A stretch of 64,000 nt of DNA, taken from the sequence record PX104380.1; one strand, given 5' to 3'. A program made the position numbers and the translations under genes. This stretch comes from a phage. Under the pieces are notes generated by a model. That model saw only the letters and a program-made list of their open reading frames with translations, searched no databases and was not told the origin of the DNA. Within the stretch, counting starts at the first letter, position 1. Every line of letters begins with the position of its first letter. Positions 1 through 36,647 of the stretch are shown piece by piece.

Positions 1-1836
<1,836 letters not shown>

Positions 1837-8084: not shown

Positions 8085-8894
8085 ATGCTTAAAGAACAAC
8101 TGATTGCCGAAGCGCAGAAAATTGATGCTTCCGTTGCTCTTGATAGTATTTTCGAATCAGTTAATATTTCTCCGGAAGCAAAAGAAACTTTCGGCACTGT
8201 ATTCGAAGCTACCGTCAAGCAGCACGCCGTTAAATTAGCTGAATCTCATATCGCTAAAATTGCTGAAAAAGCAGAAGAAGAAGTAGAAAAAAATAAAGAA
8301 GAAGCAGAAGAAAAAGCTGAGAAGAAAATCGCTGAGCAAGCTTCTAAATTCCTTGACCATCTTGCAAAAGAATGGCTCACTGAAAATAAATTAGCAGTAG
8401 ATAAAGGCATCAAAGCCGAACTGTTTGAATCCATGCTTGGTGGATTGAAAGAGCTCTTCGTTGAACACAACGTTGTTGTTCCAGAAGAATCAGTTGATGT
8501 TGTAGCTGAAATGGAAGAAGAACTGCAAGAACACAAAGAAGAATCAGCTCGTCTGTTCGAAGAACTCAATAAGCGTGACGCATATATCAATTATGTGCAG
8601 CGTGAAGTGGCATTGAGCGAAAGTACTAAAGATCTGACTGAGTCTCAAAAAGAAAAAGTCTCTGCTCTGGTCGAAGGTATTGATTATTCAGATGCATTCT
8701 CAAGCAAATTGAGTGCCATCGTAGAAATGGTGAAGAAATCTAATAAAGATGAAAGCACTATTACTGAGAGTATAAATACTCCTGATACTGAAGCAGCCGG
8801 ACTGAATTTCGTCACTGAAGCTGTAGAAGATAAATCTGCACAAGGTGCAGAAGATATTGTAAGTGTATATGCGAAAGTCGCATCTCGTTTCTAA
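8085..8894 (+). CDS. 22: prohead core scaffold protein gp22
   Basis: 269 aa, Glu/Lys-rich coiled-coil composition; T4 size. Confidence 0.9.
   Translation: MLKEQLIAEAQKIDASVALDSIFESVNISPEAKETFGTVFEATVKQHAVKLAESHIAKIAEKAEEEVEKNKEEAEEKAEKKIAEQASKFLDHLAKEWLTENKLAVDKGIKAELFESMLGGLKELFVEHNVVVPEESVDVVAEMEEELQEHKEESARLFEELNKRDAYINYVQREVALSESTKDLTESQKEKVSALVEGIDYSDAFSSKLSAIVEMVKKSNKDESTITESINTPDTEAAGLNFVTEAVEDKSAQGAEDIVSVYAKVASRF
8771..8778 (+). promoter_or_regulatory. late promoter TATAAATA inside gene 22 (P23-like)
   Basis: exact TATAAATA about 135 nt upstream of gene 23 ATG. Confidence 0.45.
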
Positions 8895-8912: not shown

Positions 8913-10478
8913 ATGACTATCAAAACTAAAGCTGAACTTTTGAACAAATGGAAGCCATTACTGGAAGGTGAAGGTTTACCGGAAATTGCTAATAGCAAAC
9001 AAGCGATTATCGCTAAAATCTTTGAAAACCAGGAAAAAGATTTCCAGACAGCTCCGGAATATAAAGACGAAAAAATTGCTCAGGCATTCGGTTCTTTCTT
9101 AACAGAAGCTGAAATCGGTGGTGACCACGGTTACAATGCTACCAACATCGCCGCAGGTCAGACTTCTGGCGCAGTAACTCAGATTGGCCCGGCTGTTATG
9201 GGTATGGTACGTCGTGCTATTCCTAACCTGATTGCTTTCGATATTTGCGGTGTTCAGCCGATGAACAGCCCGACTGGTCAGGTATTCGCACTTCGTGCGG
9301 TATATGGTAAAGACCCAATCGCTTCCGGCGCTAAAGAAGCATTCCACCCAATGTATGGTCCAGATGCAATGTTCTCTGGTCAGGGTGCTGCTAAGAAATT
9401 CGCTGCTTTGAAAGCAAGTGATACTCTTGAAGTCGGAACTATTTACACCCACTTCTTCCAGGACACTGGTACTGTGTATCTGCAAGCTACATCAGCTAAA
9501 CAAATTGATTCAGGCGCATCTGACGCAGACAAATTAGATGCTGAAATTAAGAAACAAATGGAAGCTGGTGTACTGGTAGAAATCGCTGAAGGTATGGCTA
9601 CTTCTATCGCTGAACTTCAAGAAGGTTTTAACGGTTCTACCGATAACCCGTGGAATGAAATGGGCTTCCGTATCGATAAACAAGTTATCGAAGCTAAATC
9701 TCGTCAGCTGAAAGCTGCTTACTCTATTGAATTAGCACAAGACCTCCGCGCTGTTCATGGTATGGATGCTGATGCTGAACTGTCTGGTATTCTGGCTACA
9801 GAAATTATGCTGGAAATCAACCGCGAAGTTGTTGATTGGATTAACTACTCCGCTCAGGTTGGTAAATCTGGTATGACCCTGACTCCGGGTTCTAAAGCTG
9901 GTGTATTCGACTTCCAGGACCCAATCGATATTCGTGGTGCTCGCTGGGCGGGTGAATCCTTTAAAGCTCTGTTGTTCCAGATTGACAAAGAAGCAGTTGA
10001 AATTGCTCGTCAAACCGGTCGTGGTGAAGGTAACTTCATTATCGCTTCCCGTAACGTAGTTAACGTTCTGGCTTCAGTTGATACCGGCATTTCTTATGCT
10101 GCACAAGGTCTGGCTACCGGCTTTAACACTGATACTACCAAGTCAGTATTTGCTGGTGTTCTGGGTGGTAAATACCGTGTATATATCGACCAGTATGCTA
10201 AACAGGATTATTTCACTGTAGGTTATAAAGGTCCGAACGAAATGGATGCTGGTATTTACTACGCTCCATATGTAGCTCTGACTCCACTGCGTGGTTCTGA
10301 TCCGAAGAACTTCCAACCGGTAATGGGGTTCAAAACTCGTTACGGTATCGGTATCAACCCATTTGCAGAATCCGCTGCTCAGGCTCCGGCTTCTCGCATT
10401 CAGAGTGGTATGCCTTCTATCCTGAACAGCCTTGGTAAGAACGCTTACTTCCGCCGTGTATATGTTAAAGGTATCTAA
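8913..10478 (+). CDS. 23: major capsid protein gp23
   Basis: 521 aa; sequence and size as T4 gp23. Confidence 0.97.
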   Translation: MTIKTKAELLNKWKPLLEGEGLPEIANSKQAIIAKIFENQEKDFQTAPEYKDEKIAQAFGSFLTEAEIGGDHGYNATNIAAGQTSGAVTQIGPAVMGMVRRAIPNLIAFDICGVQPMNSPTGQVFALRAVYGKDPIASGAKEAFHPMYGPDAMFSGQGAAKKFAALKASDTLEVGTIYTHFFQDTGTVYLQATSAKQIDSGASDADKLDAEIKKQMEAGVLVEIAEGMATSIAELQEGFNGSTDNPWNEMGFRIDKQVIEAKSRQLKAAYSIELAQDLRAVHGMDADAELSGILATEIMLEINREVVDWINYSAQVGKSGMTLTPGSKAGVFDFQDPIDIRGARWAGESFKALLFQIDKEAVEIARQTGRGEGNFIIASRNVVNVLASVDTGISYAAQGLATGFNTDTTKSVFAGVLGGKYRVYIDQYAKQDYFTVGYKGPNEMDAGIYYAPYVALTPLRGSDPKNFQPVMGFKTRYGIGINPFAESAAQAPASRIQSGMPSILNSLGKNAYFRRVYVKGI

Positions 10479-35777: not shown

Positions 35778-35801
35778 AACTTTGTGCAATCTTTGGAAAA
35801 T

Positions 35802-35825
35802 AAAAAAGGACTCCCGAAGGAGTCC
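35802..35825 (-). terminator. hairpin GGACUCC-UUCG-GGAGUCC plus UUUUUU, 3' of 30.9
   Basis: 7-bp stem followed by six U on the minus strand. Confidence 0.6.
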
Positions 35826-35830
35826 TTAAC

Positions 35831-36007
35831 TTATGCTTTCTGCTTACCAAAACGAGAAGCATCATCTCGAAGAACCGCACGTGCTCGGCGCATGATCTTC
35901 TCAACAGTTTGATTGATACGAGAGTTCGACCCACGCTTGTAGCCAGCGCGTTTAGAATCACCAACTTTCTTTTCAACTGCTTTCTTTGCTTTAGCTTGTT
36001 TTGCCAT
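35831..36007 (-). CDS. 30.9: hypothetical basic protein (30.9 position)
   Basis: 58 aa from ATG 36007 (MAKQAKAKK...); an in-frame ATG at 36049 would give 72 aa. Confidence 0.55.
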   Translation of the reverse strand: MAKQAKAKKAVEKKVGDSKRAGYKRGSNSRINQTVEKIMRRARAVLRDDASRFGKQKA

Positions 36008-36251
36008 TATAAATTCTCTTTTAAATGAAAATGCAGGACTTATTGGCATTGCCTGCGAAAGCCCTCAAAGGGGTACTTAGGTTTTGAATATTTACCGACA
36101 GGATAACCATAAACCCGTCATCATTCACATTCAAGAGGTACACCATAAAACTGCCGGGGTCTTAAAACTATAATGATTCGCAAATCATTAATCAGACAGT
36201 TCGACGGCTCCTCGATTTTAGCTCACACTAAGGCAGTGAATCTCCAATAAA

Positions 36252-36500
36252 TTACTTCAGTGTTACCACAAAGTGACGAACTGCTTTTCGTGCAGCAGAA
36301 GCCAGAGGCTTAGCATATTTAAGTTCATCTTTTTCCTGAAGCTCAGCAGCTAATGCAGTTTGAGCAGGATTCAGATGTTTGAAATAACGCAGGATTTCAA
36401 GAGCTTCGGCTTCAACATCAATAGATGCGCCATAGTTTTCGTGACCATTATTCCATGCGTTTCGTTGCAGTTCAAGAGCGTGTTGTAATTGTTTAATCAT
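36252..36500 (-). CDS. rIII: lysis inhibition accessory protein rIII
   Basis: 82 aa; T4 size and position upstream of 30.9. Confidence 0.85.
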   Translation of the reverse strand: MIKQLQHALELQRNAWNNGHENYGASIDVEAEALEILRYFKHLNPAQTALAAELQEKDELKYAKPLASAARKAVRHFVVTLK

Positions 36501-36647
36501 TTAAAAATTCTCGTTAGAGATTAAAACTCGGTAGTCACGTTCTTCTGAATTTCATCTTCTTTCGACAGATCTCTCAGTTGTAGACTACCACATAGAATTG
36601 TTCGGTTAACTTATTATTCCGACACCCAATTCATATTATTATTTATA

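Follow-up and report, generated by a model that had tools for sequence, protein, structure and literature searches.

Between genes rIII and 30.9 of a T4-type phage, at positions 36,008–36,251 of the 64,000-nucleotide (nt) stretch of record PX104380.1 that was analysed (the window), lies an array of independent structured RNA cassettes, not one RNA. Covariance-model comparisons show that the family of one cassette, module E, is homologous to TenpI, and alignments of a second, module A, show that its relatives are homologous to ToxI. The comparisons suggest that one intergenic array of T4, and of hundreds of related phages, holds unannotated, conserved single-unit homologs of these two antitoxin families. 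In type III toxin-antitoxin (TA) systems, an antitoxin RNA binds an endoribonuclease toxin directly and so inhibits it; two of these systems, ToxIN and TenpIN, are widespread on plasmids of enterobacteria as abortive-infection defences. The explanation we favour, with somewhat more confidence than doubt, is that the spacer is a transcribed non-coding cassette array whose orphan antitoxin units, the TenpI-like module E and the ToxI-like module A, act as decoys. The original prediction, made from the letters of the window, was of a small non-coding RNA or a long structured leader; the interval is indeed non-coding, structured and conserved, but it is neither a single RNA nor a simple leader.

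A mosaic of structured cassettes

The window is a T4-type (Tequatrovirus) segment, and phages ACG-C40, Aplg8 and RB14 are about 99% identical to it. Comparison of the rIII-to-30.9 spacers from 40 IMG/VR loci (loci are cited by L numbers) and several GenBank phages shows that the spacers consist of discrete modules, each present or absent as a whole and variable in order. The order in the window is A-B-E-F-G:

36214–36246, minus strand: module A, a single diverged ToxI-like unit, UGGAGAUUCACUGCCUUAGUGUGAGCUAAAAUC, immediately 3′ of the rIII stop.
36127–36218, minus strand: module B, a branched hairpin of about 88 nt with helices at 36135–36213 and an 8-bp inverted repeat (36171–36190) at its tip.
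36076–36121, minus strand: module E, a TenpI-like H-type pseudoknot with the A-rich linker GGUAAAUAUUCAAA.
36056–36078, minus strand: module F, a small conserved hairpin, (A)AGUACCCC-UUUGA-GGGCUUU.
36033–36056, minus strand: module G, a hairpin, GCAGG-(CAAUGCCAAUAAGUC)-CCUGC.

Relatives hold the further modules C, D, H and G2. In ACG-C40 the 153-nt module C is inserted precisely at the B/E junction, where T6 and RB69 have the 45-nt module D. Klebsiella- and Enterobacter-type phages have the order H-E-A-C-F-G2, and F-E-D and F-C-E are found elsewhere. Insertions use fixed junctions, with GAATGT before the insert and ATGATG after it, and the length of the spacer shifts blockwise, from 244 nt in the window and T4 to about 260 in RB69, 288 in T6 and 397 in ACG-C40. 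One global RNA fold would not tolerate such reordering, and the interval is therefore made of independent recombining cassettes. It is present in 771 phage records and is 95–99% identical over hundreds of isolates; in RB69-type phages the identity is still about 70–76%.

The spacer had been predicted to lack a plausible gene, and the 244-nt gap holds just two minus-strand open reading frames (ORFs), of 41 and 20 amino acids (aa). It had also been predicted to be structured on the transcribed strand. The minus-strand fold has z = −2.24, with 4 of 200 dinucleotide shuffles as good, whereas plus-strand RNA folds no better than its shuffles (z = −0.22). Covariation analysis across relatives, the check suggested with the original prediction, was positive for pseudoknot E and hairpin B. 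A search of Rfam 15 with the interval at E-values ≤ 10 gave chance-level matches only and no family for any module, and the spacers of relatives matched no family at permissive thresholds. ARAGORN found neither tRNA nor tmRNA in the window. A weak DUF2815 match on hairpin G (14.6 bits, E-value 4.8; the family's gathering score is 41.2) did not recur in L021.

Two structural proposals for the interval were rejected. Long-range pairing between UUAUUGG, after the rIII stop, and the loop of G appears in the minimum-free-energy fold, but it is absent from RB69 and JS98-type phages. A stimulator of rIII readthrough or frameshifting is not supported either, as E follows the stop at distances of about 5 to 125 nt and no downstream frame is open.

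Antitoxin-like units in modules E and A

Module E is found in all the spacer-bearing loci collected and is thus the core element of the array. In the window, helix P1 pairs GACGGG with CCUGUC, and helix P2 pairs the loop, UUUA-U-GGUU, with AACC-UAAG downstream; the A-rich linker is conserved in the family as ACG(U/G)UAAAUAU.CAAAA. Both helices covary. Over 37 distinct sequences the covariation is 0.266, with 78% of cells paired, compared with 0.122 for column shuffles (0 of 500 attain 0.266) and at most 0.139 for slid partners. One column pair of P1 is UA in 19 sequences, AU in 17 and GC in 1, another is CG in 27, GC in 6 and UA in 4, and double changes are seen in five of the seven pairs of P2. 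Cognate loop-tail duplexes reach −5.5 kcal/mol, non-cognate ones −3.5 kcal/mol. A covariance model built from phage E sequences only (R1) finds a single copy in the window, at 36068–36130, with 70.6 bits and an E-value of ~2e-16.

A 2025 survey describes TenpI antitoxins as having longer, often non-identical repeats that fold into H-type pseudoknots, with an A stretch positioned for A-minor contacts with stem 1 (PMC12283969). The anatomy of E agrees with this description. The survey names the E. coli plasmid pYLMB22 (PMC12283969), and the two best matches of R1 on this 3.7-kb plasmid (E-values 0.006 and 0.025), both on the correct strand, fall in the region of about 110 nt between promoter and terminator upstream of tenpN, which holds two non-identical units of the E architecture. 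On eight further tenpN plasmid loci, whose toxins are diverse (37–56% identical to the Yersinia protein), 15 of 16 matches with E-values ≤ 1 lie in tandem units just 5′ of tenpN, the best at 3e-4, and antitoxin units were located by R1 in all 12 of the tenpN plasmid loci searched. Four toxins, encoded by the downstream ORFs, were tested and pass the curated NCBIfam TenpIN cutoff.

The reverse search gave the corresponding result. A second model (R2), built only from eight bacterial TenpI units from loci of Pseudomonas, Yersinia and Edwardsiella, was run on 329 kb of phage loci; its six matches with E-values ≤ 1 are all E modules (L148, 1.5e-4; L058, 3.5e-4; L029, 0.025; L034 and L031, 0.08; L021, 0.72). 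By eye, primary sequences are also alike, as between CCUGUCGGUAAAUAUUCAAAACC in the window and CCCCACGGUAAAAACCCAAAUUCC on the E. coli O157 plasmid pNE92-2. Since R1 scores on TenpI are near noise in a large search space, the case for TenpI rests on the positions of the matches and on the reciprocity of the two models. On pYLMB22 (L205) we also observed that the RefSeq tenpN coding sequence, 2001–2627, is over-extended at its 5′ end, so that the annotated gene covers the terminator as well as the two TenpI units; a shorter ORF, with its start near 2477, is matched by the NCBIfam TenpIN profile from its residue 17 onwards.

Outside T4-like phages, E was sought by pattern scans of IMG/VR followed by R1. 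It occurs in contigs with a different terminase and portal and an HK97-type capsid, with no rIII or 30.9 match nearby. In L081 the 58 nt that separate tRNA-Asp from tRNA-Pro in an array of 12 tRNAs are exactly those of E, and in L058 and L155 E adjoins tRNAs; in all three the terminase, portal and capsid types differ from those of T4-like phages. In the T4-like contig L045/L098 the entire A-B-E-G block lies within an array of 15 tRNAs. All these unrelated contexts have the same 18 nt, UUAUCCAGACGUUAAAUA, within E, and the identical stretch and the diversity of contexts together imply that E is a self-contained and mobile RNA unit. In 185,579 genomes, exact pattern scans returned no bacterial counterpart of E; the patterns were too strict, and the link to bacteria emerged only when covariance models were applied to tenpN loci. 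Two other identities proposed for E were rejected: Rfam supports neither a preQ1-I nor a guanidine-III riboswitch, and T4 rnaC and rnaD show no resemblance by eye, while the T4 tRNA region that holds them both has no match to the E model.

Several further features were seen in these loci. The A-B-E-G block of the T4-like contig (L098 ~8300–8720; L045 1413–1700) is followed by a chimeric ORF in which the leader and ATG of 30.9 are fused to the C-terminal 40 codons of rIII. After this ORF, TTTATTGGAGATT runs directly into tRNA-Gln, and the same 13 nt follow rIII in the window; this shared sequence suggests that spacer and tRNA region have recombined with each other. The tRNA array of L081 adjoins a gene (8939–10357) for a 473-aa phrog_850 'RNA-binding protein' (E-value 2e-143), which we suspect may be Ro60/TROVE-like, and several other inter-tRNA gaps of this array, of 100–400 nt, may contain more small RNAs. 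A small hairpin 3′ of E is found in opposite orientations in L023 and L026 (GAGAGGTGTAAGACCTCTC and GAGAGGTCTTACACCTCTC) and looks like a palindromic terminator-like cassette that was inverted at the DNA level.

Module A is linked to ToxI through its relatives. The 36-nt ToxI repeat AGGTGATTTGCTACCTTTAAGTGCAGCTAGAAATTC is present in 5.6 tandem copies on plasmid pNMEC-O75B, with a terminator and then a toxin gene of the ToxN/AbiQ family downstream, and a published ToxI primer contains the repeat sequence (PMC5772629). Module A of Klebsiella-type phages, GGTGATTTGCTACCAAAGTGCAGCTAGAAA, shares 30 of 36 positions with ToxI and matches 65 small plasmids, at 3–10 places in each. The JS98-type loci L017, L018 and L020, together with L099, have a unit that matches ToxI at 31–32 of 36 positions, which in L017 and L018 reads AGGTGATTCGCTACCTT(A)AGTGCGGCTAGAAAATC. 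In L017, L018 and L020 it occupies the position of A in the window, with the rIII stop upstream and B downstream, and window A is identical to the L017/L018 unit at 27 of 35 positions. The substitutions in window A preserve several pairs. The pseudo-ToxI of phage PhiTE has a compensatory U9C/A25G pair (PMC3475682), which is also found in the L017/L018 units and in window A (U9:A25 to C:G). A further compensatory change in window A turns G10:C24 into A:U; pairs 10:24 and 11:23, both inferred here, are A:U and C:G. GCUA, which includes the ToxN-contact bases C27 and U28, is retained. The unit is bounded by AAAAU on its 3′ side and by UAAUUUAUU, without AAAU, on its 5′ side.

Other modules, flanking genes and transcription

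Module B is predicted to contain 25 pairs (RNAalifold, 12 distinct variants), with 3 of 300 cells broken. Five pairs show compensatory double changes, as at one position where G:C becomes G-U in the window and A:U elsewhere, and three G-U pairs are conserved, which places the structure on the transcribed strand. The inverted repeat that had been predicted, TAATGATT-(tgcg, minus strand)-AATCATTA, lies exactly at 36171–36190, and its counterpart in L022, UAUCGAUU/AAUCGGUA, carries compensatory changes. B is confined to Tequatrovirus-, RB69- and JS98-type loci among those sampled, and it has no match in Rfam and no counterpart in plasmids or E. coli. BLAST against plasmids and E. coli genomes found no bacterial counterpart of C, D, F, G, G2 or H either.

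Module F is present in most of the spacer-bearing loci read. Its order relative to E varies, some loci have it directly after the rIII stop, and its pairing support is weak. The F sequence GAGGGCUUU resembles the 3′ half of the pYLMB22 tenpI terminator, a likeness that is unproven.

Of the stem originally described as GCAGG...CCTGC enclosing GGCAATGCC, the two arms are present at 36052–36056 and 36033–36037, but the palindrome overlaps the 5′ arm and is not enclosed. The stem of G covaries, GCAGG/CCUGC being replaced by AACUGG/CCAGUU in L021 and L036, and the 14–15-nt loop sequence is kept. A U-rich tract and then a weak 30.9 ribosome-binding site follow G on its 3′ side, and in Klebsiella-type phages a longer hairpin, G2, stands in its position. 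G probably also affects the translation of 30.9, and a leader role for this 30.9-proximal hairpin is possible. An element like G2 precedes rIII in the window (36536–36583, minus strand; 85% identity over 48 nt, CUACAAC.GA.AGA.CUGUCGAAAGAAG.UGAA...), and one leader cassette thus serves different genes in different phages.

Module C is not in the window, where its insertion point would be 36126/36127. In ACG-C40 (L002 1956–2108) it is 153 nt long, CGGCAAGUGCAUGCUACCCCGAGG...GCUAACGGUGUGCAACAGAUAAGAG, with 8-nt inverted repeats, CTTATAGC/GCTATAAG, at its ends. It occurs as a single copy in 404 phage records of many genera with 85–100% identity, unannotated or miscalled as a hypothetical protein, and has no match in Rfam, plasmids or E. 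coli. We regard it as a strong structured-RNA candidate.

The array is flanked by the following features:

36252–36500, minus strand: rIII, upstream of the array; an ORF with a phrog_1457 match, annotated as rIII in relatives.
35831–36007, minus strand: 30.9, downstream of the array; 58 aa, very basic, phrog_1427 (unknown function).
35806–35827, minus strand: intrinsic terminator 3′ of 30.9, found by terminator scan and annotated as an early terminator in phage Aplg8.

The start of 30.9 that is kept across relatives and genera is the ATG at 36007 (MAKQAKAK), which gives the 58-aa protein. T4 and several relatives annotate a 72-aa protein from the ATG at 36049, within hairpin G, but this upstream ATG is not conserved and is lost in RB69 and others. 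Neither rIII nor 30.9 has a match in Pfam or PADLOC, neither is a toxin, and 30.9 has no match in the PDB. The possibility that 30.9 is TifA was rejected, since TifA is gp61.4. Most Straboviridae loci with a spacer also carry 30.9, and relatives without 30.9 have no spacer; in L038 a weak 30.9-like match goes with a gap of almost nil. Nearly all neighbouring genes had been described as overlapping or less than 60 bp apart, which holds only in part: the ORF-free 31-rIII gap (36501–36647) is 147 nt, the 30.9-30.8 gap 110 nt and the 30.8-30.7 gap 68 nt.

The absence of a clear promoter, as originally noted, is confirmed by a scan that found no sigma-70-like promoter and no intrinsic terminator on the minus strand within the interval. 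The transcription unit that holds the array is closed by the strong terminator after 30.9. Given this terminator and the lack of internal signals, the interval is most likely transcribed as part of a 31-rIII-30.9 unit, as the gene order indicates. The best Rfam matches nearby, to Atu_C8 (E-value 4e-4) and the Phe leader at 35792–35875, were rejected as homologs because the GC-rich terminator hairpin and U-tract after 30.9 alone produce both.

Possible functions and comparison with known systems

ToxIN is triggered by the shut-off of host transcription by a phage, after which the labile antitoxin RNA is lost by decay. In the model of the TifA study, ToxIN is activated during phage infection (PMC10853763). 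A phage may escape by supplying antitoxin RNA itself, either as the PhiTE pseudo-ToxI after repeat expansion or as a captured ToxI (PMC3475682). In the mechanism that we favour, the array would be made within the 31-rIII-30.9 transcript. As T4-type infection stops host transcription and the labile host antitoxin RNA decays, the phage units would occupy the antitoxin-binding groove of endoribonucleases of the TenpN/ToxN family and keep them inactive, ToxN-type targets being involved at least in relatives. With the toxin kept inhibited, abortive infection would be prevented. Recombination at the fixed junctions would exchange cassettes, giving the presence/absence patterns and changing order, and would fit the set to the defences that each phage lineage meets. 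E units flanked by tRNA genes would be cut out during tRNA processing as separate RNAs of about 57 nt. Transcription through the spacer, processing, toxin binding and benefit to the phage are thus all predictions from sequence.

Several observations weigh against decoys. An E. coli toxIN reportedly blocks T4, which depends on a protein, TifA, for its escape (PMC10853763); that T4 needs TifA implies that a T4-type A unit is not effective against that ToxN at native dosage. The wild-type PhiTE pseudo-ToxI is inactive until its repeats are expanded, which its authors attribute to the fact that 1.5 repeats encode no full unit (PMC3475682), and PhiTE is therefore an imperfect guide to the single, apparently complete units considered here. 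Window A has lost G30, and its U4:A13 pair is replaced by A-G. It is identical to ToxI at 26 of 37 positions, with an nhmmer E-value of 0.86 that is not significant, though it is the top match in the 64 kb. In a crude tiled local alignment A was outside the top eight and was outscored by a ToxI resemblance, CCACCCTTTAAATGAAGCTGGAAAAATT, within the coding sequence of the terminase large subunit (20–60, plus strand), which we take as coincidental. As a chance match scored higher, the likeness between A and ToxI is insufficient by itself, and, direct similarity not being significant, A is called a diverged ToxI-like unit by positional orthology. The bacterial-only model R2 does not reach the E copy of the window, so that this copy's membership is transitive, through the phage E family. 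The 5′ flanks of window A and E have no obvious A-rich toxin cleavage site, and the BLAST searches of plasmids and E. coli gave no known defence counterpart for B, F or G.

Of the explanations in which the units do not act on toxins, one is that the spacer is a cis-acting leader or intercistronic stabiliser, which protects the 3′ end of the rIII mRNA and the 5′ end of the 30.9 mRNA or tunes 30.9 translation; the antitoxin resemblance would then reflect sequence origin only. The association of the spacer with 30.9 in most Straboviridae loci fits this proposal, as do the lack of internal promoter and terminator, the covarying stem and U-rich tail of G or G2 and its constant place just 5′ of the 30.9 ribosome-binding site, and the G2-like element 5′ of rIII. 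We nevertheless consider it unlikely, because the module order is not fixed, the distance to the start codon ranges from about 30 to 250 nt, and E occurs between tRNA genes of unrelated phages without 30.9 or rIII. A generic stabiliser would need neither an identical 18-nt E stretch across contexts nor homology to a trans-acting antitoxin.

It is likewise improbable that the array is an evolutionary relic, fragments of captured plasmid type III TA systems and other RNAs that now drift without function. Divergence of window A from ToxI, the sensitivity of T4 to an E. coli toxIN, and the gain and loss of cassettes such as the 153-nt C and the 45-nt D between close relatives would all be expected of a relic. 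Against this stand the occurrence of E in unrelated phages, the identity maintained over hundreds of isolates and into RB69-type phages, and the otherwise tight packing of T4-type genomes. Substitutions in B and E are compensatory or compatible with G-U pairing, which indicates purifying selection on RNA structure; such strong conservation with structure-preserving change disfavours leader and relic alike.

A DNA-level element (a recombination hotspot, homing site or origin) is very improbable: the fixed junctions and the small palindromic hairpin found in both orientations in L023 and L026 would suit it, but the opposite strand would have A-C mismatches in place of the conserved G-U pairs, a fold better than that of shuffles is confined to the minus strand, and covariation of the pseudoknot has no rationale in DNA. 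Least credible of all is a missed small protein gene, for although a 41-aa ATG ORF exists on the transcribed strand (36021–36146) and some records annotate hypothetical proteins, one-base indels between near-identical phages (+G and −T in Aplg8, a net +1 in T4) break its frame and mark it as no conserved gene, it is absent or different in distant relatives, and substitutions track RNA pairing rather than codons.

The decoy interpretation can be extended, though this wider version is doubtful. T4-like phages would then hold a swappable 'RNA anti-defence island' 3′ of rIII, with decoys of the RNAs of several immune systems; B, C and D would mimic systems not yet linked to them, 30.9 would be a possible partner, and tRNA arrays would be platforms for expression and processing. 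Carriers of the spacer include therapeutic candidate phages against E. coli, Klebsiella, Shigella and Salmonella, and unrelated phages, too, have the TenpI-like unit, in their tRNA arrays. Should the units be decoys, they would help to explain differences in host range on tenpIN and toxIN strains and would be the first natural ligand-like probes for TenpN, for which, to our knowledge, no antitoxin structure has been solved. Phage intergenic 'spacers' could then be anti-defence loci that are invisible to protein-centred screens.

Among known systems, TenpI shares with E the H-type pseudoknot plan, primary sequence and reciprocal detection by covariance models. The common plan is a 5′ (A/U)UGUGG-like strand pairing with a CCCCAC-like strand, then ACG(U/G)UAAA and an A-rich linker, and finally a 3′ strand base-paired to the loop; P1 of window E has diverged from it (GACGGG/CCUGUC). 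TenpI comes as two or more tandem units with a terminator and tenpN, whereas E in the window is one unit between B and F, has no promoter, terminator or tenpN of its own, and is located in a phage transcript or, elsewhere, a phage tRNA array. With a single unit and no adjacent toxin gene, it is an orphan unit and not a TenpIN system. Window A keeps the central-stack pairs of ToxI through compensatory changes, together with GCUA and its contact bases, but ToxIN has repeats with AA^AU cleavage sites and toxN, while A is a single copy with no toxN adjacent.

The PhiTE pseudo-ToxI is likewise non-coding, antitoxin-like and intergenic in a phage, and has the compensatory 9:25 pair in common with A. 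PhiTE is rv5-like and carries 1.5 repeats that escape mutants expand, whereas the window and its relatives are T4-like, A is one of several unrelated cassettes, a second, TenpI-like family is present, and the records examined showed no expansion. TifA, the protein inhibitor of ToxN, is a counter-measure of the T4 family to type III TA, and the spacer units are candidates against the same defence; TifA is an experimentally validated protein encoded elsewhere in the genome, while the units are RNAs and candidate inhibitors. T4 rnaC and rnaD are small structured phage RNAs, linked to tRNAs and without assigned function, and E similarly lies in the tRNA arrays of other phages. In the literature we found pseudo-ToxI described only for PhiTE and nothing on antitoxin-like RNAs in T4-like phages, and we know of no documented RNA counter-measure to type III TA other than pseudo-ToxI of this one Pectobacterium phage. 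Phage RNA mimicry of type III antitoxins is thus of a known kind; the TenpI family, the multi-cassette array of the T4 family and the carriage in tRNA arrays are new.

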